A stretch of DNA of 64,000 nt from an uncultured delta proteobacterium (lineage in GTDB: Bacteria; Desulfobacterota; Desulfuromonadia; Geobacterales; DSM-12255): assembly GCA_963787125.1 (NCBI GenBank), contig CAWBBV010000016.1, positions 21,679 through 85,678 of the forward strand, in the 5' to 3' direction. The notes beneath the pieces are model-generated. The model made no database searches. It saw nothing but the letters and a program-made list of their open reading frames with translations, and was not told the origin of the DNA. Numbering within the stretch: position 1 is the first letter of the stretch; each line of letters opens with the position of its first letter. This document shows, piece by piece, positions 9,397 to 33,675 of the stretch. The position numbers and the translations under genes are program-made.

Positions 9397-9837
9397 TCAT
9401 TTACTTGTGGCTATTTCATTTACCCTACGTATTAAATCAGCTGCTTGTGAAATAAACTTTAATTCTATTCTATTGCTATCAAACTCAATAATAATACATC
9501 CACGTTTTGCATCTGTTATAGATATATTTGATAAATTAGATAACGGTATTATATTAATAATCCTATCCATTTTCATAAATGAGTCATATTTCGGCATATC
9601 AAGCTCAATTCTATCATTATATAATGTTATTGCTTGACTGGAACTTTTACATAATAAAAGTAGAAGTATTAGTAAAATAATAGATATAGCTATAAATAAC
9701 CATGCCATTAAATATATTTTACTTACATATAAAACTATTGAAATAGATGTAATTACACACCACGTGAAAGCTAGATATATCACAATATTAATCTTAGAAA
9801 ATGACTTATTGTAAAATAATATATTGCAATTATTCAT
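9397..9837 (-). CDS. Small AT-rich membrane protein (2 predicted TM helices + ~75-aa soluble tail); candidate cognate partner/immunity gene of paralogue A
   Basis: 146-aa ORF. Hydrophobic stretches IVIYLAFTWCVITSISIVLYV and WLFIAISIILLILLLLL. My hand count of a 60-nt sample (9421-9480) gives 30% GC. Removing the IS1380 element makes its ATG overlap the stop of paralogue A (ATGA). Confidence 0.7.
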   Translation of the reverse strand: MNNCNILFYNKSFSKINIVIYLAFTWCVITSISIVLYVSKIYLMAWLFIAISIILLILLLLLCKSSSQAITLYNDRIELDMPKYDSFMKMDRIINIIPLSNLSNISITDAKRGCIIIEFDSNRIELKFISQAADLIRRVNEIATSK

Positions 9838-9857: not shown

Positions 9858-11530
9858 CCCGAATCCGCAAACCTTTGCCGGACACATTCATACAGGGTGA
9901 TTTCGGAGGTATTTTTTTGAGTGAGACCCCATTGAGGGGAGTCGAAATCACAGTTTTCAGCAAATTTCAAAAAGTGACGAGCTATTTTCCTCTTCAGGCG
10001 GTGTTTTTGCCGAATTAGGGACGAACTGCCACCTTGATCTTGTTTTTTGCTCTTTGACAATCTTGTTTTCAGTGTTTCCTTTAGCCGGTTACCGGCTGGA
10101 GCCTGCTGATTCTCGCCTGTATTCTGTCAGGGCGAAGCTTCTCCAGCCACCAGCCGTTGACTTTTAGCAGGTTCTTGCGAGCATGATTGACCACGATTGC
10201 CGCACTACGCAGCAGATAATCCTGAATGGTCTTGATCCGCCGCCGCACTGGTGTTGCCTGACTGTCCGTCTCTATATCACCAGTTTCATCCCGCCACTGC
10301 TGGCCCAGCAAAATTAGCAGATTGTAGGCCATGGTTCCCAATGTAAGGAATACTTCGTTGACACTGAAGGTCTGGGAGGGAAACCGTTCCAGGTCCAGAT
10401 CGTGCTTAAGCTCTTTGTTTGCCTCCTCTGCCGCTCCACGTCCCCGATAGAGTTCGAATGCTCGCTGCGGGGTAACATCTTTGGGCAGGTTGGTGGCCAG
10501 TACGTGATAGCGGACATCATTGATCAGCAGTGGCTCCCCTTTTTCGTCTACAGACTTGATCTGAACGCAGAAGACGAAGCGGCGTGGAATCTTCCAGCCG
10601 CTTGGGGTGTACTCGAATTCTCCGTAGAACTCACCACCGAAGTCCGTGACTTTGAGGCTCATAACGTCTACATCGAGATTCTCGTTTACCACCCGGTCCA
10701 AAGCGCCACTGGTTCGGGCCTTGACCAGATAGTACGCCCCGGCATCTTCGCTGGCCTGGACAGTTTTGATGCTATAGAGCCCGGCATCGTAGCGAAAGAG
10801 GAGCTTGTTTCGATCTATCTTCTCAGGGAGCAGCTCTGCCGTTTCCCTGATAAAATCGTCAATCCGTTCGACAGCTTTCTCTCGTCCTGGCAACAGCCAG
10901 TGATTGATGCAGAACCGTTCGCGACCTACAACAGCAAATACGGGGGTATAGCAGAGTTTGCCGTTGTATGTGGTTTGAGCACCTTCTCGTTTGGGCGCAA
11001 ACTGCTCAAAAATACTTGGATCAATATCGCAAGGGATGTAACCTTCAGCTCCCGGTTCAGCAGTGATGGTTGCCTGGGAAACAATCTTTGCTCCGACCCG
11101 CTTGAGACCAGTGATCTGCTCTTTGCCATATTTTTCAAGATGCGTGGCAACAGCCCGTTCTTTTGGGAGTTTGTTAAAGCCAAGCGACTTCTTGAGCAGT
11201 TTTTCTTCCCGAGCGAGCCAGGCAAGATCAGTGTAACTAGTCCGGCGTAGGGAAATGTTTAGTAACAGCGGGATCAGATGTTCCTCTTCCCGGAAGCCGT
11301 AGTCGATCTTCTTGACCCGCACCTCGCTTCTGATTGCTCGAATCAAATCGAGACGGCGTATGAGGGTGGTGAGCAACTCCAATCCTGCTACGGAAGTTAG
11401 TGTCTGTCGGGCTGCTACATACTGGAAACCAAGATTGTCTTTCACCATTCGGGTGAACTCCTTCACTGCAATTATGTGAAGGATTATAGCATGTTACGTT
11501 ACATTAGCCCAATAGTTTTGCGGATTGGGG
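9858..11530 (-). mobile_element. IS1380-family insertion sequence (1,673 bp) with 5-bp TTAAT target duplication
   Basis: Terminal inverted repeats CCCGAATCCGCAAACCT (9858->) and CCCCAATCCGCAAAACT (11530<-) match 15/17. They are flanked by direct TTAAT at 9853-9857 and 11531-11535. Length, CC-starting IRs and a single ~455-aa DDE transposase fit IS1380-family characteristics. Confidence 0.8.
10081..11448 (-). CDS. IS1380/IS4-like DDE transposase
   Basis: ORF track 10081..11466 starts at GTG. ATG at 11448 (MVKDNLGF...) has GAAGGAG upstream. C-terminal ...YRGRGAAEEANKELKHDLDLERFPSQTFSVNEVFLTLGTMAYNL is the Y-(2)-R-(3)-E-(6)-K style signature region of IS4/IS1380-type DDE transposases. Confidence 0.85.
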   Translation of the reverse strand: MVKDNLGFQYVAARQTLTSVAGLELLTTLIRRLDLIRAIRSEVRVKKIDYGFREEEHLIPLLLNISLRRTSYTDLAWLAREEKLLKKSLGFNKLPKERAVATHLEKYGKEQITGLKRVGAKIVSQATITAEPGAEGYIPCDIDPSIFEQFAPKREGAQTTYNGKLCYTPVFAVVGRERFCINHWLLPGREKAVERIDDFIRETAELLPEKIDRNKLLFRYDAGLYSIKTVQASEDAGAYYLVKARTSGALDRVVNENLDVDVMSLKVTDFGGEFYGEFEYTPSGWKIPRRFVFCVQIKSVDEKGEPLLINDVRYHVLATNLPKDVTPQRAFELYRGRGAAEEANKELKHDLDLERFPSQTFSVNEVFLTLGTMAYNLLILLGQQWRDETGDIETDSQATPVRRRIKTIQDYLLRSAAIVVNHARKNLLKVNGWWLEKLRPDRIQARISRLQPVTG

Positions 11531-11910
11531 TTAATAAATTCAATCAATGCTATATTTATTAACATTTGACCAACTGTTAATAGTGCAACCAATAATATTC
11601 CAAGGCCAATGATGGCTAAGCCAAATGGTGTTGCAGCAATTAATGTAGTTAATGCAGTCCCCATATAACCTGATAAAATATAGCCTAATACACTTGTTCC
11701 ACCAGTCCCTAGTAGAGATGAAAATAAAGTTTTCCCAAGGTTAAAATCAGTGTTATTTATGAGTGAGTCTAATGTTGAAATTAGAAATGAAGACAACACT
11801 GTAACTACCAAAGCCGCTACGCCTAAACCTGACAATGCTAGCAGTACTGATATCAATGTAAATGCTCCCCATAAAAGGTCTTTCCCTAAATTAACCGCAC
11901 ACCCACTAGC
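11494..11910 (-). other. Variable C-terminal module CT-A (138 aa, multi-helix hydrophobic, Gly/Ala/Ser-rich)
   Basis: Similarity to paralogues B/C ends after GYMISGG. Sequence ASGCAVNLGKDLLWGAFTLISVLLALSGLGVAALVV...GLAIIGLGILLVALLTVG. My hand count of 11541-11600 gives 27% GC, against 58% for 13201-13260 in the conserved body. Confidence 0.75.
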
Positions 11911-14541
11911 CCCCCCGCTAATCATATACCCGCCAGCCCCAGTCTCCGGATTGGTAATGATATAACCACACCCATTCCACCCATTGAAGTTGATGTTGGT
12001 CTTGGAAACAGTAACAACTTTTCCGGCATTGACGGCATTGGCGATGTCGTCCTTTGTTTGCTGGTCTACCTGCAACTGCGGCATTACTGTAGCAATATTT
12101 GACTGGTTGATTGTATAGATCGGTATCCCCTGGTCATTGGCAATCTTGAGCGCCTTGACCGTGCTGATTCCTTGCACTGAGTTACTTGGCGTGGAGAAGA
12201 GCTTCTCCGGCACATTGTGCTCCAGCGCCGAGGAAGTCATGCCGCTGGAGAGCATATACTGCTTGGCGGTCTCGCTGTTGCCGTCTTTTGCCTTTACTAC
12301 CTGCATCAGATAATCAGCATCCATATTGAGTCCGCCGGAACTGATATAGCGCGGTATTCCCCAAAGACACATTACTTTGAGCTTGGTGGCGAAGATGGTT
12401 TCTGACGGTACGGTGATGGCGTTGACGTTCATGGTTTTTGCGGCAATGTAGTTCATGGTGCCGAGTTCGGCATGATAGGCCATGGCGGTGGTGTAGAGGA
12501 GATCACCGATCAGATCATCTTTGGTCATGCCGGCGAAGTCGTTGTTCTGCAGTTTTGCTTTGGTAGCTTCCAGTTTTGCTTTGAGCCCGGTTAACTGCTC
12601 GGCGCTGATTCGCCCCAGGTTGAGCCCGATTGCCTGGTACACCCCGGCGTCAATGTAGTTGGTTATCTGGCTTGAGCCGTAAGCCGGGTCGCTGAAGGTC
12701 ATGGTGGAGATGTTGGTGCCGCCAAGGCCTACCGGCGCTCCGGTGGCCACTACCTGACCGTCAATCCTGAGTTCCGGTTTGACGTTGATCAGATACGCCG
12801 GTAGTTGGCTGGGCAGTTCGCTTGGCTGTATGGGGGTGCCGTCTGCATGCGGGCTTGGCAGGTAGGAATTGATGACTGCTTCATCCTGGGCGGTTGCCGG
12901 ACTGTAGCTGAGGGTAATCTTTTTGCCTGCCAGTTCTGCGAGGCTTTTGGTTATGCTCAGTGAGTTGTCCACCGGTGCCGGTGCTTCGGGATCAATGAAG
13001 GTGTTGGATGCTTCGTTCTCTACCCTGAAGGAGAGCTTGTGCCGCAAGCTGTCTGGGATGCTTGCAAACGTGCTCCCCTTGACGGCGGTGCGGTACGGCA
13101 GGGTACCGAGGAGATGGCGGTATTCTTTTTTGATGATCTCTTTTTTGCCGAGGACGTCGCCGACAGTGGCGTTGGCGTGGTTCTGCTGGATGTAGCTCTG
13201 TACCCGTGCCTGGTAGTCTTGCATGGTCTGCTGGGTGAGGATGGAGTTGATGCCGGTGACGTAGCCTTGAGTTTCGTTGATAGTGGCGGTGGCCTTGATC
13301 TGGTCGAGGAACGCTTGAGCGTCGAAGGGGACTGCTGTCTTGATGTCGATGCCCTGGGTGAAGTTGTACTGCTTGTAGCTCGGATCAAGAGGTATCCAGG
13401 TGTCACCCTTGCCGCTTATATGCTTTGCGCCACGGGAGGGGATGTAGTTGATGAAAGCTTCGACCGAGACATGTTCAAAACGGGCAGCAACGATCTTGCC
13501 GCCGCTAACCAGTCCCTTGGTGGGAATGCCGCCGCTGGACATGAAATCGAGGGCGGACAGTGGGTCGGTGAAGCCTCCGGCCCAGTTCATGACTTTATCA
13601 ATGGGGAGTTCTACTGTGCCGGTGACATAGCGGGCATTGATCCCGGCAGCTCGCAGCAGAGCGATGAGGAGGGAACTTGTATCAAAGGAGTTGCCCTGCC
13701 TGGTGAGCAGGGTCATCTGCGCCCCCTGGATGGAGCCCCAGGTGGGGACGAACTCGACGTTGTTCCGTACCCACTCGTAAATCTTTACCGGATTATTCCC
13801 CAGCTCCAGAGCCTTGGCCTTTATTTCGGGGGTGAGCTGGACTTCTATGTTTTCTGCCAGATCATCGGCAGGCAGCAGGCCGGCAACTGAGCCGTTGGCG
13901 GCAACCATGATCCGCTTGGCGCTCTTCCAGGCATGTTTGTCTTTTTTGAAATCCTTGTCGAAGTCTTCTTTCTTCAGCCGCGGTTCGCGTTTTTGAGCTT
14001 TGGGCTGGCGGTGAGGGAGGTTGTTCGGGTCGAGCTTCTGGTGGCGGGAGGGGGCTTTGGCCCGCTCAAGATGCTGGCGGGTCTTGTCAATGGCAGCTTG
14101 CAGCTCGGCATCGTTCTTTGCCGTTGCCGCCCGCTCAAGGTTCCCTTTCAGTTCAGTCAGGTTGTCATCGTAATGTTTGACGAACTTCTGATGCCGCGCC
14201 AAGATCTCGGGCGACATGCCAGAAGCCTTCAGTTTCTTCTCAGTGGCGGCGAGTTCGCTGCGGATGGCGGTGTCATGGGCGTCCAGCTCCGCTCTGGCAG
14301 CGCTCAGCCGCTGTTTTTTGTGATCATGGCCGGTTTTGGGATCTTGGAGATCGGCAGTCAGCTCCTCAGTAAGCTTGGCGAAGCGCTCTTCCGCCCCCTC
14401 GCTCTTCCTGGTCGGAGTTTCCTGGTTCCCCTTTTTAACGGCATCCACCGCCCCGTGGGCAAGGCTAAAGACACCACCTGATGTCCAGGTGAAGAATGAC
14501 AGTACAACTGCGGCAATGACTCTTGAGTACTTGCGAAACAT
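11494..14541 (-). CDS. Paralogue A: exported transglutaminase-fold protein with variable hydrophobic C-terminal module (last ~12 codons supplied by IS1380)
   Basis: 1015 aa. Signal peptide MFRKYSRVIAAVVLSFFTWTSGGVFSLAHG. K/E-rich coiled coil. Transglutaminase-like core GNSFDTSSLLIALLRAAGINARYVTG...FEHVSVEAFINY...WIPLDPS. Body ends NFNGWNGCGYIITNPETGAGGYMISGG. RBS GGAGA before ATG 14541. Confidence 0.9.
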   Translation of the reverse strand: MFRKYSRVIAAVVLSFFTWTSGGVFSLAHGAVDAVKKGNQETPTRKSEGAEERFAKLTEELTADLQDPKTGHDHKKQRLSAARAELDAHDTAIRSELAATEKKLKASGMSPEILARHQKFVKHYDDNLTELKGNLERAATAKNDAELQAAIDKTRQHLERAKAPSRHQKLDPNNLPHRQPKAQKREPRLKKEDFDKDFKKDKHAWKSAKRIMVAANGSVAGLLPADDLAENIEVQLTPEIKAKALELGNNPVKIYEWVRNNVEFVPTWGSIQGAQMTLLTRQGNSFDTSSLLIALLRAAGINARYVTGTVELPIDKVMNWAGGFTDPLSALDFMSSGGIPTKGLVSGGKIVAARFEHVSVEAFINYIPSRGAKHISGKGDTWIPLDPSYKQYNFTQGIDIKTAVPFDAQAFLDQIKATATINETQGYVTGINSILTQQTMQDYQARVQSYIQQNHANATVGDVLGKKEIIKKEYRHLLGTLPYRTAVKGSTFASIPDSLRHKLSFRVENEASNTFIDPEAPAPVDNSLSITKSLAELAGKKITLSYSPATAQDEAVINSYLPSPHADGTPIQPSELPSQLPAYLINVKPELRIDGQVVATGAPVGLGGTNISTMTFSDPAYGSSQITNYIDAGVYQAIGLNLGRISAEQLTGLKAKLEATKAKLQNNDFAGMTKDDLIGDLLYTTAMAYHAELGTMNYIAAKTMNVNAITVPSETIFATKLKVMCLWGIPRYISSGGLNMDADYLMQVVKAKDGNSETAKQYMLSSGMTSSALEHNVPEKLFSTPSNSVQGISTVKALKIANDQGIPIYTINQSNIATVMPQLQVDQQTKDDIANAVNAGKVVTVSKTNINFNGWNGCGYIITNPETGAGGYMISGGASGCAVNLGKDLLWGAFTLISVLLALSGLGVAALVVTVLSSFLISTLDSLINNTDFNLGKTLFSSLLGTGGTSVLGYILSGYMGTALTTLIAATPFGLAIIGLGILLVALLTVGQMLINIALIEFINPNPQNYWANVT

Positions 14542-14799
14542 TTATGTCTCCAAAATTACCGTAATTGATTTCCAGAAGTCGGGGCTCAGATCCGTCGGGC
14601 AATCGCCAGGAGCCTTAATCTTGAGAGAAGCGAGAATCTGCCCTTCTTCGGGATCGGTGAAGTCAATATCGTCACCCATCTCGACAAAACAATCCGTATC
14701 TTCCGGCAACCTGATCATTTGCAGCAGAGCATAACGGACCTGATAGAGATAGCCGAGGGCCTGTTTGCCTGCGGAGAAATTGTCGGTTGTGTCAGCCAT
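14542..14799 (-). pseudogene. 85-codon fragment resembling the N-terminus of DUF4297/Cap4-type dsDNA-nuclease (defence-effector) proteins; apparently truncated
   Basis: MADTTDNFSAGKQALGYLYQVRYALLQM...VEMGDDIDF...TDLSPDFWKSI resembles the G-(F/Y)-x-Y-Q ... E-x-x-D-D-I ... W-K N-terminal pattern of that family (recognised from memory, not searched). The ORF stops (TAA) directly abutting the ATG of paralogue A, at about a third or less of normal family length. Confidence 0.4.
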
Positions 14800-14904
14800 G
14801 AGATATCACCTTTAAATTCAAAGAAATGATAGTCCATGGTTATTGACCCTCCTAAAGAACATATGGCCGTTTCTCCTTTCTCACCAATGTAGACCAGAAT
14901 AAAT

Positions 14905-15333
14905 TTAATTGGTTACCAACCAAAAAAGCCCAACAATGTTAGTTGCGATTATTATTATTATTATTTGCCAACCATAAACCCCTGTTTTAAGAGTTGAAAT
15001 TCTAGGGCATGACTTCGAGTAAATTATATCTAAAGGCTCTTTCTTTAATTTCTTATAAAGAGCATCATGTTCAAGTTCATCAATTGTATTATAAATTGGA
15101 TTCATAAAACTTATCCTGGTTCCAATGTGTTTATCACTATCCACCGTGTACTCATATTTGATATTAACTGAGACAAAACGTGCCTTTTGCACTTTCAATT
15201 CAATTATATTCCCTGTAGCATGAGGCCAATTTTTTGAAGTTAAGCCTAAATATACAACTAATAATAAATAACTAGTCGAGCAAATCATAATAAGCATAAG
15301 CAGCACTGAAAATGCATCCATTTTGCACCTCAC
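14905..15333 (-). CDS. Small AT-rich membrane protein, DUF3592-like (TM - beta domain - TM); candidate partner/immunity gene of paralogue B
   Basis: 142 aa. N-terminal TM FSVLLMLIMICSTSYLLLVVYLGL, then WPHATGNIIELKVQK...VNIKYEYTVDSDKHIGTRISF (pattern typical of DUF3592), then C-terminal TM WQIIIIIIATNIVGLFWLV. Lies 65 nt downstream of paralogue B. Confidence 0.7.
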   Translation of the reverse strand: MRCKMDAFSVLLMLIMICSTSYLLLVVYLGLTSKNWPHATGNIIELKVQKARFVSVNIKYEYTVDSDKHIGTRISFMNPIYNTIDELEHDALYKKLKKEPLDIIYSKSCPRISTLKTGVYGWQIIIIIIATNIVGLFWLVTN

Positions 15334-15398
15334 ACAAAAGTCTAATTTAAAATTTAGATCATAATTTATGGCGAGTATTTATATAGAGTTATCTATAA

Positions 15399-15758
15399 TC
15401 ATACTATTTGTCTTTTTATTCCAAACCTATTAATTGCATAGAGCGCTACACGCAAATCGAGATAAGCAGCTAATGCAATCATAATGTATAAAGCTATTGC
15501 TCCTGCTGGTGCTAATATCAAAGCCGAGCTAAGAGTCACTTGTATTACGAAATTCGCAAAAATGGCACTCCAATTATGATCAATCGACAAACCTTCAGCT
15601 CCATCGACAATTCCTGATCCTATTAGACTTATAGCTGTTGCAAGAAAAGTAGTTATTGCAACTCCACCAATTTCACCGATCATCAACAATAAACCTATTT
15701 CTGGCCCAAAAGTTAAAACTAGCATGAATAATACAGACCACATCGCAATTATTAAGTA
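15399..15758 (-). other. Variable C-terminal module CT-B (119 aa, multi-helix hydrophobic)
   Basis: Identity with paralogue C ends after GYMISGGSNGG. Then YLIIAMWSVLFMLVLTFGPEIGLLLMIGEIGGVAITTFLATAISLIGSGIV...ALILAPAGAIALYIMIALAAYL; visibly AT-rich. Confidence 0.75.
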
Positions 15759-17450
15759 TCCACCATTCGACCCCCCACTAATCATGTACCCACCAGCCCC
15801 GGTATCCGGGTTAGTGATAATATAACCACACCCAATCCAGCCATTGAAGTTGATGTTGGTCTTGGAAACAGTAACAACCTTCCCTGCGTTGACGGCGTTT
15901 AGAATATCGTCCTTCACCTGCTGATCGACCTCCAACTGCCACATTACAGTTCCGATGTTCGCCTGATTAACCGTGTAGATCGGTATCCCCTGGTCATTAG
16001 CAATTTTTAGCGCCTTGACCGTGCTGATCCCTTCGGCTTTGTTGTCCGGTGTGGAGAAGAGCTGTTCCGGGACGCTGTGCTCCAGCGCCGAGGAAGTCAT
16101 GCCGCTGGAGAGCATATACTGCTTGGCGGTCTCGCTGTTGCCGTCTTTTGCCTTTACTACCTGCATCAGATAATCAGCATCCATGTTGAGTCCGCCGGAA
16201 CTGATATAGCGCGGTATTCCCCAGAGACACATTACCTTGAGCTTGGTGGCGAAGATGGTTTCTGACGGTACGGTGATGGCGTTGACGTTCATGGTTTTTG
16301 CCGTGATGTAGTTCATGGTGCCGAGTTCTGCATGATAGGCCATGGCGGTGGTGTAGAGGAGGTCACCGATCAGATCATCTTTGGTCATGCCGGCGAAGTC
16401 GTTGTTCTGCAGTTTTGCTTTGGTAGCTTCCAGTTTTGCTTTGAGCCCGGTTAACTGCTCGGCGCTGATTCGCCCTAGATTGAGGCCGATGGCCTGATAG
16501 ACCCCGGCGTCAATGTAGTTGGTGATCTGGCTTGAGCCGTAGGCAGGGTCGCTGAAGGTCATGGTGGAGATGTTGGTGCCGCCCAGACCTACCGGTGCTC
16601 CGGTGGCTACTACCTGCCCGTCAATTCTGAGTTCGGGTTTGACGTTGATGAGGTATGCCGGGAGCTGGCTGGGCAGTTCGCTTGGCTGTATGGGGGTGCC
16701 GTCGGCATGCGGGCTTGGCAGATAGGCGTTGATGATAGCTTCGTCCTGAGGGGTGGCCGGGGAGTAGCTTAAGGTTATCTTCTTGCCTGCCAGTTCTGCG
16801 AGGCTTTTGGTTATGCTCAGTGTGTTGTCCACCGGTGACGGTGCATCAGGATCGACGAAGGTGTTTGAGGCTTCGTTCTCTACCCTGAAGGAGAGCTTGT
16901 GCCGCAAGCTGTCGGGGATGGTGGTGAATGTTGCCCCCTTGACAGCGGTGCGGTACGGCAATGTGCCGAGAAGATGGCGGTACTCTTTTTTGATGATCTC
17001 TTTCTTGCCAAGAACATCGCCGACAGTGGCATTGGCGTGGTTCTGCTGGATATAGCTCTGTACCCGTGCCTGGTAGTCCTGCATGGTCTGCTGGGTGAGG
17101 ATGGAGTTGATGCCGGTGACGTACCCTTGTGTTTCATCAATAGTGGCGCTGGCCTTGATCTGATCAAGGAACCCCTGGGCGTCGAAGGGGACTGCTGTCT
17201 TGATGTCGATTCCCTGGGTAAAGTTGTACTGCTTGTAGCTCGGATCAAGAGGTATCCAGGTGTCACCCTTGCCGTTTACATGCTTTGCTCCACGGGAGGG
17301 GATGTAGTTGATGAAGGCTTCGACCGAGACATGCTCAAAGCGGGCAGCAACGATCTTGCCTCCGGCAACCAGACCTTTGGTGTGAAGTGGTTGCGCTTTA
17401 TGAGACATGTGTGTAAGCAATGAACCTCCCTATTTCAAAAGGAGAGTTCA

Positions 17451-17759
17451 ATGCAACAACATCGTACACGTCACAGCGCAGCTTTTAAGGCCAAGGTCGC
17501 TTTGGCCGCCTTATCAGAGTCAAAGACTCTGGCAGAGCTTGCAACCGAGTACCAGGTTCACCCGACCCAGATCACCCGTTGGAAGCAGGATCTGATTGCA
17601 AATGCTTCTGACCTTTTTGGCAAGGGCAAAAAGAAAGAAGTCAACCATGAGGGCGAAGTGGCCGAGCTTCACCGCCTGATCGGCAAGCTCAAGGTTGAGA
17701 ATGATTTTTTGTCACATCTGCCCGGGCTGAACTTGGCCGGGCGCAGAAACAACAAGTGA
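17451..17759 (+). CDS. IS3-family transposase OrfA (HTH)
   Basis: 102 aa; HSAAFKAKVALAALSESKTLAELATEYQVHPTQITRWKQDL is a helix-turn-helix followed by a leucine-zipper-like LHRLIGKLKVEND. Confidence 0.9.
   Translation: MQQHRTRHSAAFKAKVALAALSESKTLAELATEYQVHPTQITRWKQDLIANASDLFGKGKKKEVNHEGEVAELHRLIGKLKVENDFLSHLPGLNLAGRRNNK
17705..17711 (+). promoter_or_regulatory. Candidate -1 programmed ribosomal frameshift heptamer T-TTT-TTG
   Basis: In the orfA frame the codons read gaT TTT TTG (D-F-L), an X-XXY-YYZ slippery motif. Shifting -1 here reads on without a stop into the orfB frame (FFVTSARAELGRAQKQQVIATGHP...). Confidence 0.6.
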
Positions 17760-18592
17760 TCGCCACCGGTCATCCTGAAGTTTCTGTTGAACGCCGCTGC
17801 CAGCTTCTGGGTCTGCCTCGTTCCAGCTATTACCGTGGCCCTGCTTCCGGTCTTCGTTCCGGTGACCTGGAAATGATGCAGCGGATCGACAAACTCTACA
17901 TGGAGCAGCCCTGGATGGGGAGCCGCTCACTGGCCAACCACCTCACGACACCTGAAGCACCCTTGGGACGAGATCGTGCCCGTCGCTTGATGCTCATCAT
18001 GGGTATTGAATCCCTGGCTCCTCAGCCGGGCACCAGCAAGCGGCAACCGAAGCATCCGGTCTATCCCTATCTGCTGCGGGGAATGACCATTGACAAGCCC
18101 AATCAGGTCTGGGCGACTGATATCACCTACATCCCCATGGCACGGGGATTCATGTACCTGATAGCGATCATGGACTGGGCCACCAGAAAGGTTCTGTCCT
18201 GGCGTCTGTCCAATACGCTGGATACCCGATTCTGCGTCGAGGCGCTCAAAGAAGCTCTGTTCAAATACGGTGCCCCGGAGATCTTCAACACCGACCAGGG
18301 CTGCCAGTTTACCAGCGAAGCATTCACGTCAGTGCTCAAAACCTGGAACATCAAAATCAGCATGGACGGCAAAGGTCGTTTCAGGGACAACATCTTCGTC
18401 GAACGGCTCTGGCGCACGCTGAAGTATGAGAGAATCTACCTGAACGTTTATGAAACGGGAACCGAACTTTCCAAAGACATGACATACTGGTTCAACTGGT
18501 ACAACGTAACCAGAAAACATACATCTCTTGACAAACTGACACCGGATGAGGCTTATTTCCAAGGACTTGAAAAACTGAAACTGGCAGCCTGA
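17756..18592 (+). CDS. IS3-family transposase OrfB (DDE/rve integrase core); probably made as an OrfAB fusion
   Basis: 278 aa. WATDITYIPM..., NTDQGCQFTS..., ERLWRTLKYE match the DDE(35)E rve catalytic regions. It lies in the -1 frame relative to orfA. Confidence 0.9.
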   Translation: MIATGHPEVSVERRCQLLGLPRSSYYRGPASGLRSGDLEMMQRIDKLYMEQPWMGSRSLANHLTTPEAPLGRDRARRLMLIMGIESLAPQPGTSKRQPKHPVYPYLLRGMTIDKPNQVWATDITYIPMARGFMYLIAIMDWATRKVLSWRLSNTLDTRFCVEALKEALFKYGAPEIFNTDQGCQFTSEAFTSVLKTWNIKISMDGKGRFRDNIFVERLWRTLKYERIYLNVYETGTELSKDMTYWFNWYNVTRKHTSLDKLTPDEAYFQGLEKLKLAA

Positions 18593-19781
18593 AGCCAGAA
18601 AACCACAACAACCAAGGGACATTGCTTATTTCACCCTTCAGGCTGTCTCACTAAGCCCGGCCACCTCAGTGGGAATGCCACCGCTGGACATGAAATCGAG
18701 GGCGGACAGTGGGTCGGTGAAGCCTCCGGCCAAGTTCATGACTTTATCAATGGGGAGTTCTACTGTGCCGGTAACATAGCGGGCATTGATCCCGGCAGCT
18801 CTGAGCAGGGCAATGAGGAGGGAACTTGTGTCAAATGAGTTCCCCTGTCTGGTCAAGAGCGTCATCTGCGCCCCCTGGATGGAGCCCCAGGTGGGGACAA
18901 ACTCGACGTTGTTACGCACCCACTCGTAGATCTTTACCGGATTGTTCCCCAGCTCCAGAGCTTTGGCCTTTATTTCGGGGGTGAGCTGTACTTCTATGTT
19001 TTCTACGAGATCATCGGCAGCCAGTAGGCCGGCAACTGAGCCGTTGGCGGCAACCATGATCCGCTTGGCGCTCTTCCAGGCATGTTTGTCTTTTTTGAAA
19101 TCCTTGTCGAAGTCTTCTTTCTTCAGCCGCGGTTCGCGTTTTTGAGCTTTGGGCTGGCGGTGAGGGAGGTTGTTCGGGTCGAGCTTATGATGGCGGGAGG
19201 GGGCCTTGACCTTTGCCAGGTGCTGACGGGTCTTTTCAAACTCAGCCTCTACATCGGTTTTGCTTTTCGCTTTCTCAACACGATCAATGTTCCCCTTCAG
19301 CTCGGCAAGGTTGTCGTCGTAGTGTTTGACGAACTTTTGGTGACGGGTCAGGATCTCTGGCGGCAGTTTGGCGTTCTTGAGCTTCTTTTCGGTGGCAGCA
19401 AACTCGCTGCGGATGTCGGCGTCAAGGGTGTCTAGCTCAATTTTGGCCGCTAGCAGCTTGTCCCGTTTGGCTCCATGAGCCAGTTTTGAATCGGCCAGTG
19501 TCTCCCGCAACTCCTCAGTGAGTTTGGCCAGCTTCTCTTCCGCTCCTTCGGCCTTTTGCGCCGGAACTGCGGTCTTGGCCTTTTTCGCACCATCAACCGC
19601 TGCATGGGCAGCGCTGAAAACTCCGCCGGATGTCCAGGTGAAGATGAAGAGAACCAGTGTGGCAGTTATTTTTGTGAAGCTATGGGGCATTTTTATCCCA
19701 TCTGCCATCTGAATTTATCTGCTAAGGTAATGTAAAGTCAAGTTGATGCTATTTCTGTAAAAACAAATTATTTATCAGCAG

Positions 19782-20372
19782 TTAGGATATTTCTTTGTAT
19801 AGTACACCATGCCTATTTAATACATCTCTTATCGATTGAACGTCAGCTTCATTTAAATGATGTCCTGTAATAGCGAATACTGAAATTCCATAGTTATTTA
19901 CACATCTGGGTATTATTCCTTTTGTCCGAATGTATAAATAGAATTTTTTTCTTTCATCGCTACCAATTTTCAATAATGATTGGAGCTCATATATGGAATA
20001 AAATTCAATATCAGCCCATTTCTCAGCTATTAATCTGTATATTGGTACTCTAGCGAGAAATTTATTTGGATATAGGGCAATTCCATTGTTTGTGATTATA
20101 AGCTTCATATTTCTTGAATAATTAATATAATATGCTGGCAGCATAACAATAAGTAATATTAACAGTTCAATAACAACCAAACTGATTATACTAAATCTGA
20201 TTATCAATAAATGTGAATATAAAGCATCATAAGTAAATACTAGCAAAACAATAACATTTAGTAAGACTTCTTTGTATGTTATGTATTTGCTTGCCTTTGG
20301 TTTATAAATTGAATCAAATTTACAACATATATCTGCACTTACAATATATTCGTATTTATTTTGTGTTTTCAT
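19782..20372 (-). CDS. Small AT-rich membrane protein (2 TM + ~100-aa C-terminal domain); candidate partner/immunity gene of paralogue C
   Basis: 196 aa. TM stretches LLNVIVLLVFTYDALYSHLLII and FSIISLVVIELLILLIVMLPAYY. The ATG is 7 nt after the stop of paralogue C, with AGGA overlapping that stop (tAGGAtaattATG). Confidence 0.7.
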   Translation of the reverse strand: MKTQNKYEYIVSADICCKFDSIYKPKASKYITYKEVLLNVIVLLVFTYDALYSHLLIIRFSIISLVVIELLILLIVMLPAYYINYSRNMKLIITNNGIALYPNKFLARVPIYRLIAEKWADIEFYSIYELQSLLKIGSDERKKFYLYIRTKGIIPRCVNNYGISVFAITGHHLNEADVQSIRDVLNRHGVLYKEIS

Positions 20373-20379
20373 AATTATC

Positions 20380-20760
20380 CTATAAAAAGAAATATGCTAT
20401 TAAATCAACAAAATATGCACAATAAGCAACAAGGTATTGCACAAGCTGTATTTCAACTGATTGCGGTACTCCTCCACTAAAAGGACTAGGCATGCCTCTT
20501 AGTAAAAATCCTAACGCTATCTGACCTATAATATCCATAATTGCCCCAGATCCTGTAATAATAGTCAAATCAGTCAGGCCATAACTTCTTCCAAATACTG
20601 TTTGTATAGTATTTGCAATTACCACTTGAATAACTGTCGTCAATATAGGAACCATAACTATTCCAAGAGGCGTTGTGAATGTCAAACCAAGTGCAATTGA
20701 TAATAGCAATATCGAAAAGTATGATACCCACATTGCAGATGCGTATGGAAATAATAAATC
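20380..20760 (-). other. Variable C-terminal module CT-C (126 aa, multi-helix hydrophobic)
   Basis: After GYMISGGSNGG: DLLFPYASAMWVSYFSILLLSIALGLTFTTPLGIVMVPILTTVIQVVIA...GAIMDIIGQIALGFLL...LVQYLVAYCAYFVDLIAYFFL. No alignment to CT-A or CT-B; AT-rich. Confidence 0.75.
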
Positions 20761-23403
20761 TCCTCCATTCGACCCCCCACTGATCATATACCCACCAGCC
20801 CCGGTCTCCGGGTTAGTGATAATATACCCACACCCAATCCAGCCATTGAAGTTGATGTTGGTCTTGGAGACGGTAACAACCTTTCCGGCATTGACTGCAT
20901 TAGCGATGTCGTCTTTTGTCTGCTGGTCTAGCTGTAGTTCCCAATATAATGTTCCAAAGTTTTCTTTATTGACCGTGTAGATCGGTATCCCCTGGTCGTT
21001 GGCAATCTTGAGCGCCTTGACGGTGCTAATGGCCTGTGCCGGTGCGTCGGGAGTGGAGAAGAGCTGCTCCGGAACGCTGTGCTCCAGCGCTGATGAGGTC
21101 ATGCCGCTGGAGAGCATGTACTGCCTGGCTGTCTCGCTGTTGCCGTCTTTTGCCTTTACCACTTGCATCAGATAATCAGCATCCATGTTGAGTCCGCCGG
21201 AAGCGATATAGCGCGGTATTCCCCAGAGACACATTACTTTGAGCTTGGTGGCAAAGATGGTTTCTGACGGTACGGTGATGGCGTTGACGTTCATGGTTTT
21301 TGCCGTGATGTAGTTCATGGTGCCGAGTTCTGCATGATAGGCCATGGCGGTGGTGTAGAGGAGGTCACCTATCAGATCATCTTTGGTCATGCCGGCAAAG
21401 TCGTTGTTCTGCAGTTTTGCTTTGGTAGCTTCCAGTTTTGCTTTGAGCCCGGTTAACTGCTCGGCGCTGATTCGTCCCAGGTTGAGGCCGATGGCCTGGT
21501 ACACTCCGGCGTCAATGTAGTTGGTGATCTGGCTTGAGCCGTAAGCCGGGTCAGAGAAGGTCATGGTGGAGATGTTGGTGCCGCCCAGGCCTACCTGTGC
21601 TCCGGTGGCTACTACCTGGCCATCAATTCTGAGTTCCGGCTTTACGTTGATGAGGTAGGCCGGGAGCTGGCTGGGGAGTTCGCTTGGTTGTATGGGGGTG
21701 CCGTCGGCATGCGGGCTTGGCAGATAGGCGTTGATGATAGCTTCGTCCTGAGGGGTGGCCGGGGAGTAGCTTAAGGTTATCTTCTTGCCTGCCAGTTCTG
21801 CGAGGCTTTTGGTTATGCTCAGTGTGTTGTCCACCGGTGACGGTGCATCAGGATCGACGAAGGTGTTTGAGGCTTCGTTCTCTACCCTGAAGGAGAGCTT
21901 GTGCCGCAAGCTGTCGGGGATGGTGGTGAATGTTGCCCCCTTGACAGCGGTGCGGTACGGCAATGTGCCGAGAAGATGGCGGTACTCTTTTTTGATGATC
22001 TCTTTCTTGCCAAGAACATCGCCGACAGTGGCATTGGCGTGGTTCTGCTGGATGTAGCTCTGCACCCGTGCCTGATAGTCCTGCATGGTCTGCTGGGTGA
22101 GGATGGAGTTGATGCCGGTGACGTACCCTTGTGTTTCATCAATAGTGGCGCTGGCCTTGATCTGATCAAGGAACCCCTGGGCGTCGAAGGGGACTGCTGT
22201 CTTGATGTCGATTCCCTGGGTAAAGTTGTACTGCTTGTAGCTCGGATCAAGAGGTATCCAGGTGTCACCCTTGCCGTTTACATGCTTTGCTCCACGGGAG
22301 GGGATGTAGTTGATGAAGGCTTCGACCGAGACATGCTCAAAGCGGGCAGCAACGATCTTGCCTCCGGCAACCAGACCTTTGGTGGGAATGCCGCCACTGG
22401 ACATGAAGTCGAGGGCGGACAATGGGTCGGTGAAGCCTCCGGTCCAGTTCATGATTTTGTCAATGGGGAGTTCTACTGTGCCGGTGACATAACGGGCATT
22501 GATCCCGGCAGCCCTAAGCAGGGCAATGAGGAGGGAACTTGTATCAAAGGAGTTGCCCTGCCTGGTCAGGAGCGTCATCTGCGCCCCCTGGATGGAACCC
22601 CAGGTGGGGACGAATTCGATGTTATTCCTCACCCACTCGTAAATCTTGACCGGATTATTCCCCAGCTCCAGTGCCTTGGCCCTGATCTCCGGGGTGAGCT
22701 GTACTTCTATGGTTTCGGCCAGATCATCGGCAGGAAGCAGTCCGGCAACTGAGCCATTTGCAGCGACCATGATCCGCTTGGCGCTCTTCCAGGCATGCTT
22801 GTTCTTCTTGAGATCCTTGTCGAACTCTTCTTTCTTGAGCCGTGGTTCGCGCTTTAGGGCTTTGGGCTGCCGATGGGGAAGATTGTTCGGATCCAGTTTA
22901 TTGTGATGGGACGGAGCTTTGACCTTTGCCAGGTGCTGGCGAGTCTTCTCAATCTCAGTCTCGACTTCATCCTTGCCTTTCGCTTTCTCAACACGGTCAA
23001 TGTTCCCCTTCAGCTCGGCAAGGTTGTCGTCGTAGTGTTTGACGAACTTCTGGTGACGGGTCAGGATCTCAGACGGGAGTTTGGCGTTCTTGAGCTTCTT
23101 CTCGGTTTCAGCAAACTGCTTGCGGATGTCGGCGTCAAGGGTGTCCAGCTCACCCTTGCGGGACGTCAGCCGCTGTTTCTTGTGCTCATGACTCGTTTTC
23201 GAGTCGAGAAGTTCTGTTGTCAGTTCCTCAGTCAGCTTCGCAAACCGTTCCTCAGCCCCTTCGCTCTTCTTTGCCGGAGCCTCGGTCTTGGCCTTCTTCA
23301 CGGCAGTTGTTGCTGCATGAGCAACGCTGAACACCCCCCCTGAGGTCCAGGTGAAGAAAGACAATACAACTGCGGCGATTATCCTTGAGTGTTTGCGAAA
23401 CAT
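20380..23403 (-). CDS. Paralogue C: intact exported transglutaminase-fold protein with variable hydrophobic C-terminal module
   Basis: ORF track 20380..23424. I prefer ATG 23403 (MFRKHSRIIAAVVLSFFTWTSGG, colinear with paralogue A, GGAGGA 6 nt upstream). Same architecture as A; near-identical to the 3' part of B over ~1.6 kb. Confidence 0.9.
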   Translation of the reverse strand: MFRKHSRIIAAVVLSFFTWTSGGVFSVAHAATTAVKKAKTEAPAKKSEGAEERFAKLTEELTTELLDSKTSHEHKKQRLTSRKGELDTLDADIRKQFAETEKKLKNAKLPSEILTRHQKFVKHYDDNLAELKGNIDRVEKAKGKDEVETEIEKTRQHLAKVKAPSHHNKLDPNNLPHRQPKALKREPRLKKEEFDKDLKKNKHAWKSAKRIMVAANGSVAGLLPADDLAETIEVQLTPEIRAKALELGNNPVKIYEWVRNNIEFVPTWGSIQGAQMTLLTRQGNSFDTSSLLIALLRAAGINARYVTGTVELPIDKIMNWTGGFTDPLSALDFMSSGGIPTKGLVAGGKIVAARFEHVSVEAFINYIPSRGAKHVNGKGDTWIPLDPSYKQYNFTQGIDIKTAVPFDAQGFLDQIKASATIDETQGYVTGINSILTQQTMQDYQARVQSYIQQNHANATVGDVLGKKEIIKKEYRHLLGTLPYRTAVKGATFTTIPDSLRHKLSFRVENEASNTFVDPDAPSPVDNTLSITKSLAELAGKKITLSYSPATPQDEAIINAYLPSPHADGTPIQPSELPSQLPAYLINVKPELRIDGQVVATGAQVGLGGTNISTMTFSDPAYGSSQITNYIDAGVYQAIGLNLGRISAEQLTGLKAKLEATKAKLQNNDFAGMTKDDLIGDLLYTTAMAYHAELGTMNYITAKTMNVNAITVPSETIFATKLKVMCLWGIPRYIASGGLNMDADYLMQVVKAKDGNSETARQYMLSSGMTSSALEHSVPEQLFSTPDAPAQAISTVKALKIANDQGIPIYTVNKENFGTLYWELQLDQQTKDDIANAVNAGKVVTVSKTNINFNGWIGCGYIITNPETGAGGYMISGGSNGGDLLFPYASAMWVSYFSILLLSIALGLTFTTPLGIVMVPILTTVIQVVIANTIQTVFGRSYGLTDLTIITGSGAIMDIIGQIALGFLLRGMPSPFSGGVPQSVEIQLVQYLVAYCAYFVDLIAYFFL

Positions 23404-23689: not shown

Positions 23690-25342
23690 TTACTTCGACA
23701 TCCTTTCCTTTAATCTCCTGACCCACATCTCGACATAATCCATATCCCCTGCCCGCTCGGTCATCCGTAGCAGTTTCGGCAGACGCTTGACCGCTACCCA
23801 TTTCGGAAGCGTGCGTTCGGCCTCCTTGTCCCAACTGCCATAGCGGTCAACCATGGTATCGAGCAATTGTTTGATATGCTGGTCCATTTCGTCAAGCTGG
23901 CAGAAGAGGTCATAGCGAAGCATCAGCCCAGACAGATCGCCTGCCAGCTCGCTGTGGTCGATATCAAGCACCACGAAAGGTGGCCTGACAGGCGAGGTGA
24001 ACACCGCCACTAAGCAAATGCGGCGGCCCTGTGGAGTCCGCGAAACAGACTGTCCCGGCTTGAGGAAAACCAGCGATACTGTCAGGGTCAGGTCAGGCTG
24101 GGACTGCTCGATCAGTTTCAAGGTTTCGATCAATAAGCCAAGATCTCCGATGGCCTCAAAACTTGCTGGTTCGAGCGTCAACACCTCCAGCGGGGACAAC
24201 CCTCCGGTGACGGATTCCTCCCCCAAACTGACTGTTTTAGAGACGATTTTGACTGGCAGTGCCGGATCAACCGGCCGTCCGGTGTCAGAGCGGGATTTGC
24301 GCGGCACCGGTTCCTGATCTCCGGTTTCCTTAACGGTCTGTCTTGCGCGGGGGGGAGAGAGAATTCTGACGACCCTGGCAGGGGAAGTGAACATACCTCG
24401 CTTACCGCCCAGCAGGATCATATCTTGGTTTATGTCCTTTTGACTATCGGCTTCCTCATCGACTTCATGCTCACGGACATGTACGGGACGGGCTGGACGG
24501 AGTAAGTCATCTTCCTCGTTCTTGGCGACGGTTGTTCTCTCCGGCCCTGTGTTTTTCTCGCAGACCGAAGGATGTGTCCAGTTAATTACCGGGGCTGGCA
24601 GGGCACGACCGGATAGTGCGTTAATCTCCAGAACAAGCCAAGTCTGAGCCTTTGCCACACCGCGGAACTCAATCCTGCAATTTTTCAGGGGCGGTGGTTC
24701 CAAGATCAAGGTCCGTTGTCCCGAACTCAAACGCCGGACGCTGTCCCAGGCAGCTCGCCCTTCCGGATGGACCGCCGCCCAGGCGAACTCCTGAACGAAC
24801 TCAGGGCGCATCAAGGCGCGGGGCGTGTTTTGATGGAATTCGATTAGAATTTCGGGATAAAAGTCAGGAACGGGAGTAAGTGCGAGATTCATCAGCCCCA
24901 TCGGCTCAAGCAGGGCCTTGGCCATTACTTTGCTGTGCAGGAAAAGGAATCGAACCAGTTCCATCGCCGGGATCAGGATGGTCCAACCACGGGAGTGATA
25001 ACGCAAGACACTATGGTCACCACCGAAATGCCCCCCCAGATCATAATGATCACGGGTGAAGGCCTTGATGGCCGGGATGACCTCCATTTGCGACAGATCC
25101 GGAATCACTGCCCAGCCGCTCTTCCCTCCCTTGCGAGAGGTCAGCACCTCTCCACTGGATATCACCAGGCCCGGCATCAGAAAAGGCAGTGTCCCATAGG
25201 GTAGCCGCCAAAAAAAAGTACTGCCGTTTTTCTGGCGGAAAAACGTATCAACACAAAGTTTGCCATCAGTTGTTTTTCCGACTCCCTTCAACCACCGCAG
25301 TTCAAGGTCGTCGGTATAATTGGCCAGCGAGGAAATCTTCAT
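23690..25342 (-). CDS. TnsE-position protein of the Tn7-like element (putative alternative target selector)
   Basis: 550 aa, last gene of the tns operon; its start overlaps the tnsD stop (ATGA). Size and position match TnsE of Tn7 (538 aa). Homology not verified here. Confidence 0.55.
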   Translation of the reverse strand: MKISSLANYTDDLELRWLKGVGKTTDGKLCVDTFFRQKNGSTFFWRLPYGTLPFLMPGLVISSGEVLTSRKGGKSGWAVIPDLSQMEVIPAIKAFTRDHYDLGGHFGGDHSVLRYHSRGWTILIPAMELVRFLFLHSKVMAKALLEPMGLMNLALTPVPDFYPEILIEFHQNTPRALMRPEFVQEFAWAAVHPEGRAAWDSVRRLSSGQRTLILEPPPLKNCRIEFRGVAKAQTWLVLEINALSGRALPAPVINWTHPSVCEKNTGPERTTVAKNEEDDLLRPARPVHVREHEVDEEADSQKDINQDMILLGGKRGMFTSPARVVRILSPPRARQTVKETGDQEPVPRKSRSDTGRPVDPALPVKIVSKTVSLGEESVTGGLSPLEVLTLEPASFEAIGDLGLLIETLKLIEQSQPDLTLTVSLVFLKPGQSVSRTPQGRRICLVAVFTSPVRPPFVVLDIDHSELAGDLSGLMLRYDLFCQLDEMDQHIKQLLDTMVDRYGSWDKEAERTLPKWVAVKRLPKLLRMTERAGDMDYVEMWVRRLKERMSK

Positions 25343-32839: not shown

Positions 32840-33675
32840 GCTCGCTTCTCCATATAGCTGGAAAGTGGCATCTGAAACGATGCCATGGTCAGTCGGTCGC
32901 TCAGCGTCAGGGTCTCCATGTCGCAGATGATCGACTTAGTGGCCAGGAGATGGCGGAACAGCATCAGCCCATCACCATCGATTAGCTCTAGGCGGGCCTC
33001 CATGTCGGAGCAGAACTGGCGTAAAGTCTGCCACGGTGAGGCCATAACCTGTGCCAGCATCCTTCGGGCTGCGTCCTGGTAAAATCCGGGATGTGGTTCG
33101 ATAAGATCATTCAATCGATAGAAACTGTGAACCCATTCGATATTGCGAATCAGGCAGGTGGGAAGAACTGCCGGGGTGACGATGCTCCAGTCAACCGCCT
33201 TGGTGCCCCAGTAAATCCTTTCTATTTCAAGCTTTTCTCTTGTCCGGGGAACGTCGAGATCCTTGCCAAGCTTGACCGCATAGGCCACTTGGGCCAGGCA
33301 TCCGTCTTTCCAGACATCGACCAGAAAGTCAGTGGTCATGACCATCGGCGTGGACATGCCGGGAAAGCGGGGAGGTTGGATATTACAGGTCTGAGCGATG
33401 AGGGTTGTTGCGGACCGGTCGAGGGGGAATTGTTCCCGGATATCGGCGACTGACTCTTCCCATTCCAGCCAGTAGAACAAGCTACGTTCAATATCAGAAA
33501 GAAGATGGTGTATTCGGCCAGTATGAATGCCCATAGGGCGCGTGCTGCGCCCTATCGAGGGGACATCTTGAACGGTTAGCCAGGGCTTGTAGTCATTCTT
33601 GTTTCCCTTTCCCCGTCCTTCCTTTTCGAACAGGGCAATCCGTTGTTCGTCAATGACATATCGGCGTCGTGCCAT
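32836..33675 (-). CDS. tnsA: TnsA, restriction-endonuclease-like transposase subunit
   Basis: 279 aa. HLLSDIERSLFYWLEWEESVADIREQFPL and MTTDFLVDV match the TnsA N-terminal catalytic-domain pattern. First gene inside the right end; its stop overlaps the tnsB start. Confidence 0.88.
   Translation of the reverse strand: MARRRYVIDEQRIALFEKEGRGKGNKNDYKPWLTVQDVPSIGRSTRPMGIHTGRIHHLLSDIERSLFYWLEWEESVADIREQFPLDRSATTLIAQTCNIQPPRFPGMSTPMVMTTDFLVDVWKDGCLAQVAYAVKLGKDLDVPRTREKLEIERIYWGTKAVDWSIVTPAVLPTCLIRNIEWVHSFYRLNDLIEPHPGFYQDAARRMLAQVMASPWQTLRQFCSDMEARLELIDGDGLMLFRHLLATKSIICDMETLTLSDRLTMASFQMPLSSYMEKRA

Follow-up and report, generated by a model that had tools for sequence, protein, structure and literature searches.

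The subject of this analysis is an array of three paralogous genes, here called A, B and C, in a window of 64,000 nucleotides (64 kb; the whole stretch of DNA that was analysed) from an uncultured delta proteobacterium of the Geobacterales (GenBank assembly GCA_963787125.1, contig CAWBBV010000016.1, positions 21,679 to 85,678 of the forward strand). The paralogues lie head to tail on the minus strand and represent one large secreted-protein gene in three neighbouring copies, each with a small open reading frame (ORF) on its downstream side (Table 1). Taken together with the related loci described below, the array is likely to encode a Sec-exported polymorphic toxin/immunity system. Of the three paralogues only C is intact; from its start it comprises a signal peptide, a helical N-terminal region, the core of an inactive transglutaminase, ~480 residues of body, the junction motif and a hydrophobic tail.

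Table 1. Features of the paralogue array and its surroundings. Positions are those of the 64-kb window; TM, transmembrane; GC3, GC content at third codon positions; IS, insertion sequence; RT, reverse transcriptase.
Feature	Position	Strand	Description
Giant gene	1-9361	-	At least 3120 codons without a stop; runs off the window; bounds the AT-rich cassette downstream
Small ORF of A	9397-9837	-	146 aa, 2 TM helices, GC 0.25; lies beyond the IS4-like element; predicted immunity gene of A
IS4-like insertion sequence	9858-11530	-	DDE_Tnp_1_4 transposase 10081-11466 (Pfam E = 2e-29); inserted nine codons before the original stop of A
Paralogue A, present form	11494-14541	-	1015 aa; 11494-11532 is an IS-derived end
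Native tail of A	11531-11901	-	
Junction motif of A	11902-11979	-	
DUF4297/ABC-three-component (CTD7) relic	14542-14799	-	85 codons of an anti-phage gene (NCBIfam DUF4297_antiphage, E = 0.009)
Small ORF after B	14905-15333	-	142 aa, 2 TM helices, GC 0.30; predicted immunity protein
Paralogue B, C-terminal part	15399-17382	-	
Tail of B	15402-15761	-	120 aa, 4 predicted TM helices, GC 0.36
Junction motif of B	15762-15839	-	
IS3-family insertion sequence	17383-18668	+	orfA 17451-17759 and orfB 17756-18592 with the usual overlap; splits paralogue B
Paralogue B, N-terminal part	18669-19708	-	Severed by the IS3 insertion (translation; IS ends; 3-bp target duplication CAC)
Small ORF after C	19782-20372	-	196 aa, 2 TM helices and a soluble domain, GC 0.27; predicted cognate immunity protein
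Paralogue C	20380-23403	-	1007 aa from the ATG at 23403; Pfam Transglut_core E = 1e-14; identical to database protein P0002 (1007 aa)
Variable tail of C	20383-20763	-	127 aa, 2-4 predicted TM helices, GC 0.35, GC3 0.22; predicted membrane-acting toxin domain
Junction motif of C	20764-20841	-	W-x-GCGYIITNPETGAGGYMISGG-SNG; final conserved codons ahead of the variable tail (alignments)
550-aa ORF	23690-25342	-	Directly after tnsD; no Pfam or NCBIfam match
TnsD gene	25339-27156		
Group II intron	27260-29055	-	Between tnsC and tnsD; RT/maturase ORF 27338-28849; Rfam group-II-D1D4-3 127 bits, Intron_gpII 49 bits
TnsC-like gene	29009-30685		
TnsB gene	30692-32839		
TnsA gene	32836-33675		
14-nt repeats	33745-33798		Three copies of GAGCAAACTTTATT, spaced 20 nt
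glmS	33834-35669		Abutted by the Tn7-like genes, together with glmU

The original prediction, made from the nucleotide letters and their translated ORFs, held that identity among the three copies ends within a few codons after a conserved motif, and that from there the DNA is AT-rich through the small downstream gene. Alignments between the copies (blastn) end at 11911 in A, 15759 in B and 20761/20773 in C, and in the MAFFT alignment identity stops directly after the codons for GYMISGG, with B and C sharing four more codons (SNGG). In ungapped 60-nt blocks anchored on the junction, nucleotide identity is 0.85-0.93 in the two upstream blocks (120 nt) and 0.25-0.38 downstream, approximately the level expected of unrelated AT-rich DNA; the first downstream block of B and C stands at 0.53 because these two copies share SNGG. 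The abrupt junction was thereby borne out for all three paralogues.

The shift in composition at the same position was likewise confirmed. The bodies have a GC content of 0.54-0.55 and a GC3 of 0.68, the tails 0.35-0.36 and 0.22-0.24, and the small downstream ORFs 0.25-0.30 and 0.17-0.29, respectively. Each tail together with its small ORF lies 5.0-5.7 standard deviations under the mean of the 964 other 800-nt windows (z = -5.0 to -5.7), and these modules are the sole 300-nt windows below 40% GC in the 64 kb. Normal GC content resumes precisely where the following gene begins (9361, 14799 and 19708). The GC values counted by hand for the original prediction proved exact (0.267 for 11541-11600, 0.300 for 9421-9480 and 0.583 for 13201-13260). 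A high content of hydrophobic amino acids was considered as the source of the low GC and ruled out, since GC3, which depends little on amino-acid content, falls too. On the downstream side of A the predicted AT-rich stretch is real as far as the small ORF at 9397-9837 is concerned, but it is parted from A by an IS4-like insertion.

The end of this IS4-like element has replaced the last nine codons of A, and the present last 12 codons and stop of A (11494-11532) are IS sequence. The element ends in imperfect terminal inverted repeats (CCCCAATCCGCAAAAC / CCCGAATCCGCAAACC) with flanking ATTAA. When it is removed in silico, A ends in ...IEFIKREETV*, with the TGA overlapping the ATG of the 146-aa ORF (ATGA); judged from this arrangement, A and the 146-aa ORF would have been a translationally coupled pair before the insertion. 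In length and topology the ORF equals the one behind a weakly related tail in locus L005, to which it is weakly similar (E = 0.006), and a search of a database of 5.8 billion proteins returned it alone. Paralogue B is interrupted by an IS3-family element with the ends TGAGGTGG.../...CCACTTCA, flanked by the 3-bp duplication CAC, the excision of which restores ...GIPTKGLV... in the translation. A promoter and terminator scan of the array gave counts no higher than the shuffle level.

Upstream of the junction, the bodies of B and C are 100% identical across ~700 nt, with unrelated tails, and A matches B exactly in three blocks of 100 nt. The bodies thus form a mosaic, in which gene conversion homogenises them right up to the unrelated tails. 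Two further patches vary between the paralogues (A coordinates ~12015-12215 and ~14130-14530, nucleotide identity 0.6-0.8), corresponding to residues ~776-840 just ahead of the conserved junction block and to the N-terminal helical region; specificity may depend on these patches as well.

A search with A identified 1057 homologues, mostly from Desulfuromonadales and Geobacter-like organisms, all of which are annotated only as 'transglutaminase domain-containing' or hypothetical. Two of the database proteins (P0031 and P0041) carry the precomputed Pfam accession PF28006, possibly a recently defined family that includes part of the protein or tail. A scan of 185,579 representative species genomes (one genome per species) yielded 206 confirmed relatives, from which 74 loci were taken. 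Their hosts belong to the Geobacterales/Desulfuromonadales, the Nitrospirota/Thermodesulfovibrionales, Undibacterium and other Oxalobacteraceae, Smithella/Syntrophaceae, Thiotrichales, Nitrospinota and others.

In an alignment of 111 homologues the loss of identity at the motif is abrupt and not gradual, the check that had been proposed along with the original prediction: mean pairwise column identity falls from 0.71 in residues 861-880 to 0.10 in residues 881-900. Per column, the conserved block reads W855-x-G-C858-G-Y-I-I-x-[ND]-P-x-T-G-A-G-[AG]-Y-M-I-S-G-G877-x-[NS]-G880, and no conservation follows. The predicted boundary after GYMISGG therefore describes the copies in the window, but across the family it has to be moved three residues further, behind SGG-x-[NS]-G (residue 880 of A). 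By our own count, of the 74 tblastn matches 29 have their end at query residues 873-885. The tails fall into 25 clusters among 107 proteins. From the loci, 90 unique modules of junction plus tail were extracted, 88 of which have a small downstream ORF, and the tails of these 88 genomic modules form 54 clusters.

The composition of the 90 modules allows the AT-richness of the tails to be viewed independently of the host. Body GC3 is 0.48 +/- 0.13 and tail GC3 0.34 +/- 0.08, and body GC3 exceeds tail GC3 in 80 of the modules (Wilcoxon p = 1.6e-14). Tail GC3 remains at ~0.34 throughout and is nearly independent of body GC3 (slope 0.15); for bodies with a GC3 of at least 0.55, GC3 drops from 0.65 in the body to 0.35 in the tail, and in low-GC hosts the drop is nearly gone. 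AT-richness is therefore a property of the cassette pool. The 'foreign composition' of the original prediction holds in that the tails are AT-rich, but as a general trait of the pool it is no proof of recent import. AT-rich Rhs core extensions are the classic description of the same trait.

Tail and small ORF behave as one exchangeable cassette. Between C and P0075 in locus L001 the tails share 67% identity, with bodies only 61-62% identical; the small ORF after C and the ORF behind this related tail are 58% identical (E = 3e-88). Similarly, the small ORF after B is 47% identical (E = 9e-45) to the ORF following the related tail in L002, a module that sits on an integrase-type island. The tandem copies in L041 are 100% identical in the last 400 residues of the body, with tails that are 37% and partner ORFs that are 49% identical. 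When the modules were compared in pairs, both tail and ORF were related in 22 pairs, only the tail in 25, only the ORF in 6 and neither in 3602 (odds ratio 528, Fisher p = 3e-39). This co-variation shows genetic linkage of each tail with its ORF.

Orphan modules, for which a search had been suggested with the original prediction, were found downstream of full genes at other loci. They are 5'-truncated, retain 99-573 body codons and all end at the same residue, 880, keeping query residues 740-880 in L061, 782-880 in L033, 752-880 and, in a second copy, 382-880 in L035, 714-880 in L074 and 308-880 in L064. Those in L061, L033 and L035 differ in their tails, and each tail is succeeded by a small ORF of its own. 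The idea that the motif is a conserved demarcation point for the exchange of tail/immunity modules, as in CdiA and Rhs proteins, was thus supported by every test run.

Besides tails of multi-TM type, recognisable activities were encountered in the tails of relatives. Among 30 sampled tails, 8 matched NlpC/P60 (best E = 3e-14), 4 CHAP, 3 prokaryotic phospholipase A2 (PLA2) and 2 Peptidase_C92, and further sampled tails resemble lytic transglycosylases and caspase-like proteases by eye. Ten partner ORFs of tails lacking TM helices were scanned; five match beta-propeller families (PD40, SBBP, YNCE and similar) and one YARHG/DUF4424, and most of the ten begin with a single hydrophobic segment, taken by eye as a signal peptide. 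The tail activities of the relatives are all directed at the cell envelope, which fits a Sec-exported toxin that requires periplasmic or membrane immunity. The tails of A, B and C are unrelated hydrophobic domains of 2-4 helices and probably act as membrane-disrupting toxins.

The scaffold ahead of the junction was characterised by profile searches and structure prediction. By eye, the N-terminus reads as a signal peptide. Pfam recognises Transglut_core alone, at residues ~236-387 (E = 1e-14), and a PDB profile search returned only 3isr, on the same core. The catalytic Cys of 3isr is aligned with Ala/Ser; across the 111 sequences the corresponding position 285 is A in 86, D in 15, S in 8 and V in 1, with one gap, while H357 is retained in 108 of 111 and D386 in 111 of 111. 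The family thus has, near its signal peptide, a transglutaminase core that has lost a catalytic-triad residue and is inactive. A full-length AlphaFold2 (AF2) model was obtained from a 101-sequence alignment with a mean predicted local distance difference test (pLDDT) score of 77, and is good for residues 500-880. It shows a signal helix, a four-helix region (residues 50-161; in all, a helical region of ~130 residues plus linker separates signal peptide and core), a disordered Lys/Glu/Pro linker, the transglutaminase core, an alpha/beta body, a glycine linker and low-confidence tail helices. The alpha/beta body is confident up to residue 874, with pLDDT 90-97 near its end, and the motif lies on its last beta-strand. 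According to this model, the motif would combine the final strand of the folded body with a flexible linker and would form a natural boundary between domains; its ~120 nt of coding DNA are at the same time a conserved segment.

The body itself has no recognised counterpart. In Foldseek searches of PDB and BFVD only the transglutaminase core was matched at probability 1.0, with no match at E <= 0.001 and no counterpart for residues 400-880, and a second, poorer model of residues 495-882 (pLDDT 62) returned only noise. No Pfam or NCBIfam model matched residues 400-880 even at E <= 10 or 1. The pre-toxin domain PT-TG is helical. A possible relation of the TG-containing motif block to the pre-toxin TG domain of Zhang/Aravind, raised in the original prediction, was not upheld: neither PT-TG nor another pre-toxin Pfam model matched residues 400-880 at E <= 10, and the PT-TG profile found nothing in an hmmscan of these residues and the junction/tail at E <= 10, where HMMER filters drop most matches above ~0.1.

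Polymorphic toxin/immunity systems with a demarcation motif and AT-rich cassettes are a well known kind of system, and a comparison with their established members delimits what is particular here. Some Rhs tails are hydrophobic pore-formers, e.g., Tse5. With the Rhs/YD toxins, which have a GC-rich core, the family shares a conserved body that breaks off sharply at a short conserved motif, variable tails rich in AT, a tightly linked immunity gene and 5'-truncated orphans with a body stub. It differs in having no RHS/YD repeats, PAAR or VgrG, in its junction (GAYMISGG-x-[NS]-G instead of PxxxxDPxGL), in showing no sign of an encapsulating shell or aspartyl autoproteolysis, and in a body fold that is unmatched in the PDB. 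The CdiA/CdiB/CdiI systems are alike in having a demarcation motif followed by exchangeable tail/immunity pairs, plus orphan modules, and one class of CdiA tails is a membrane ionophore paired with a small TM immunity protein. Unlike CdiA, the family has no two-partner secretion (TPS) domain, filamentous haemagglutinin (FHA) repeats or VENN, its proteins measure ~1000 residues and not 3000 or more, and no CdiB-like gene is present in the window or in L001-L004. The Streptomyces umbrella toxins and the Tc/ABC toxins likewise couple a polymorphic-toxin-bearing protein genetically to large repeat or propeller accessory proteins, an analogy alone, as they share no sequence or structural similarity with the family. 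The ending ...ISGG also resembles the GG site of double-glycine/C39 bacteriocin processing; this candidate was dropped because no C39/ABC exporter occurs in the window locus or L001-L004, and the 'leader' would here measure 880 residues.

The closest description is that of Zhang et al. (PMC3482391), who, in the passages considered here, report that some Sec-dependent polymorphic toxins carry an inactive transglutaminase N-terminally, 'followed by an array of RHS repeats', and suggest a role in peptide binding or anchoring. As far as these passages go, the signal peptide, the transglutaminase-like domain with a lost catalytic residue and the variable C-terminal toxins are common to both; the family described here has no RHS array, but a family-specific body of ~480 residues, a new junction motif and a conserved giant neighbour, and the same passages mention no Geobacter or Desulfuromonas example. 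No description of a transglutaminase-like scaffold family of this type was found in Pfam, NCBIfam or searches of full-text literature. The distinguishing features of the scaffold are the inactive transglutaminase without RHS, the new junction motif, the structurally unmatched body and the conserved giant neighbour.

The giant gene next to A encodes a protein with a signal peptide, a TED/prenyltransferase-like toroid, CarboxypepD_reg, MG2, Glucodextran_B and Ig-like repeats and a C-terminal RCC1 propeller (Pfam). Across phyla, 49 of 78 related loci contain a homologue of its N-terminal 300 residues. This homologue usually starts 0.4-1.7 kb past the junction, directly after the cassette, and lies upstream in betaproteobacterial loci.

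On its other side the array adjoins tnsD-tnsC-tnsB-tnsA beside glmS/glmU. The three 14-nt repeats between tnsA and glmS look like TnsB sites of the glmS-proximal end, and no matching left end of the Tn7-like element was found in the 64-kb window. The array and the giant gene are probably cargo of this element. The position of the 550-aa ORF directly after tnsD suggests that it is a further transposon-encoded protein (for target selection?) or the first cargo gene. The 5' domain of the group II intron between tnsC and tnsD overlaps the final ~46 nt of the TnsC-like ORF. Between the B module and A, exactly upstream of the start codon of A, lies the CTD7 relic, which is near-identical to the N-terminus of an intact 400-aa gene in L003 (11380-12582) and of a partial gene in L001 (7588-7758), and marks the old end of the B module from before A was placed there. 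An intact CTD7, MC3, LmuB_C system follows the toxin module in L003 and begins after it in L001; toxin modules and the defence system therefore share a hotspot.

Several observations weigh against the toxin/immunity reading. The three tails and three small ORFs of the window matched no known family (Pfam and NCBIfam; E <= 10 or 1) and have almost no detectable relatives outside the transglutaminase-like scaffold: when the B tail was run with phmmer against 1.8 billion representatives, just one match (104 aa) came back, and a word-based search with the C tail gave none, which is odd, since P0002 and P0075 should match, and may be caused by composition filters. From these searches and that with the small ORF of A, an occurrence of the window's tails on Rhs, CdiA or other toxins could not be shown. 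The toxicity and immunity of the window's own modules are accordingly predicted properties, as for all members of the family. No orphan with a short body stub occurs in the 64-kb window itself, where the IS-split B resembles one, and two of the three copies are broken by IS elements. No secretion-system marker (TPS, PAAR/VgrG, Rhs, LXG) that would account for exit from a diderm producer was detected in the protein or its neighbours (window and L001-L004); with its Sec signal and C-terminal TM helices, the protein could simply remain in the producer's inner membrane as an anchored protein. Finally, the member in Geotalea daltonii FRC-32 (L004, 10001-21736) has a soluble helical tail and no small ORF, in a housekeeping neighbourhood, and is followed after 55 nt by a giant gene of 2901 aa. 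Not every member, therefore, looks like a toxin; the G. daltonii pair may represent an ancestral, non-toxin state.

These points bear on three other explanations. The hydrophobic C-terminus might merely be the membrane anchor of a periplasmic, non-toxic transglutaminase-like protein, the small ORF an unrelated membrane partner and the variability a consequence of relaxed constraint. A Sec signal with 2-4 C-terminal TM helices would normally yield an anchored protein, no secretion system lies nearby and the tails in the window have no known toxin domain. We nevertheless consider this explanation improbable, because relaxed constraint predicts gradual decay and not a step within one codon beside 100% identical bodies, and because it leaves unexplained the NlpC/P60, CHAP or PLA2 domains that relatives have in place of the hydrophobic tail, the strict co-variation of tail and ORF, the orphan modules and the GC3 shift.

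The cassettes could instead be modules of specificity or recognition, e.g., variable partners of the giant TED/Ig-repeat neighbour in kin recognition or surface variation, that are exchanged by the same recombination. The conservation of the giant gene next to the scaffold (49 of 78 loci), the G. daltonii member with its soluble tail and missing small ORF and the variation of the N-terminal helical region between the paralogues are all in agreement with such a role. It is very unlikely, however, given that the tails of relatives are bona fide lytic enzyme domains paired with exported-looking partner ORFs, as in toxin/immunity pairs. That the locus is an intracellular, self-directed suicide (abortive-infection) module and not an interbacterial weapon, as its mobile defence-island setting (probable cargo of a Tn7-like element, adjoining the DUF4297/ABC-3C anti-phage relic, with the same neighbour in L001 and L003) might indicate, is highly improbable, since the scaffold has a signal peptide, the tails are envelope-acting, the partners look periplasmic or membrane-bound, and polymorphic-toxin loci commonly share hotspots with defence genes, so that this context does not discriminate. 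Each of these explanations covers part of the observations; none accounts for the enzymatic tails, the co-variation and the orphans together. Among the features of polymorphic toxins sensu Zhang/Aravind (2012), hypervariable C-termini, a co-varying downstream gene, orphan cassettes and recognisable toxin domains in relatives are present in the family.

As a polymorphic toxin/immunity system, the array could function as follows. The scaffold protein, comprising signal peptide, helical region, the Cys-less transglutaminase-like domain and the body of ~480 residues, would be exported by the Sec pathway. The cassette after the motif would be its exchangeable part, consisting of a toxin tail of 100-240 residues and a cognate immunity gene directly downstream. 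The tail would be delivered to the periplasm of a neighbouring cell, possibly after proteolytic release at the glycine-rich linker (SGG-x-[NS]-G), and the tails of A, B and C would most likely insert into the target inner membrane from the periplasmic side and dissipate it, with the small two-TM proteins blocking their own tails in the producer and its kin. Recombination with orphan or incoming cassettes may use the ~120 nt encoding the motif, near-identical between copies, as its upstream homology arm; a possible downstream arm is the beginning of whichever conserved gene comes next, either the giant neighbour or the following paralogue. New specificities would arise in this manner, with the body homogenised by gene conversion and the tail replaced wholesale.

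The giant TED/MG/Ig-repeat neighbour may take part in delivery. A more far-reaching proposal, which we put forward tentatively and hold to be doubtful, is that diderm environmental bacteria (Desulfuromonadales, Nitrospirota, Oxalobacteraceae and others) deliver envelope-targeting toxins by a so far unrecognised apparatus of two proteins, the scaffold and its neighbour of ~3000 residues, independently of type V and type VI secretion systems, Rhs and contact-dependent growth inhibition. The dead transglutaminase would dock the toxin on the giant protein, and GCGY...YMISGG-x-[NS]-G would be both recombination arm and tail-release site.

Polymorphic toxins are a main currency of bacterial competition, and their known scaffolds mostly belong to well-studied secretion machines and culturable pathogens. 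The scaffold described here is widespread, with more than 1000 database proteins, in lineages from sediment, groundwater and soil (Geobacter relatives, Nitrospirota, Undibacterium). Its cassette pool is very diverse and largely unannotated, with ~50 tail types in 88 modules, many of them, like their partner ORFs, almost without relatives, and the family is thereby a source of new predicted toxin/immunity pairs that would act on the membrane or the cell wall. The clean junction motif can be used for automatic mining of cassettes. As no route across the outer membrane is recognisable, the conserved giant neighbour offers a concrete lead to a possibly new delivery mechanism, and the array, as probable cargo of a Tn7-like element at glmS, illustrates how such arsenals may move between genomes.

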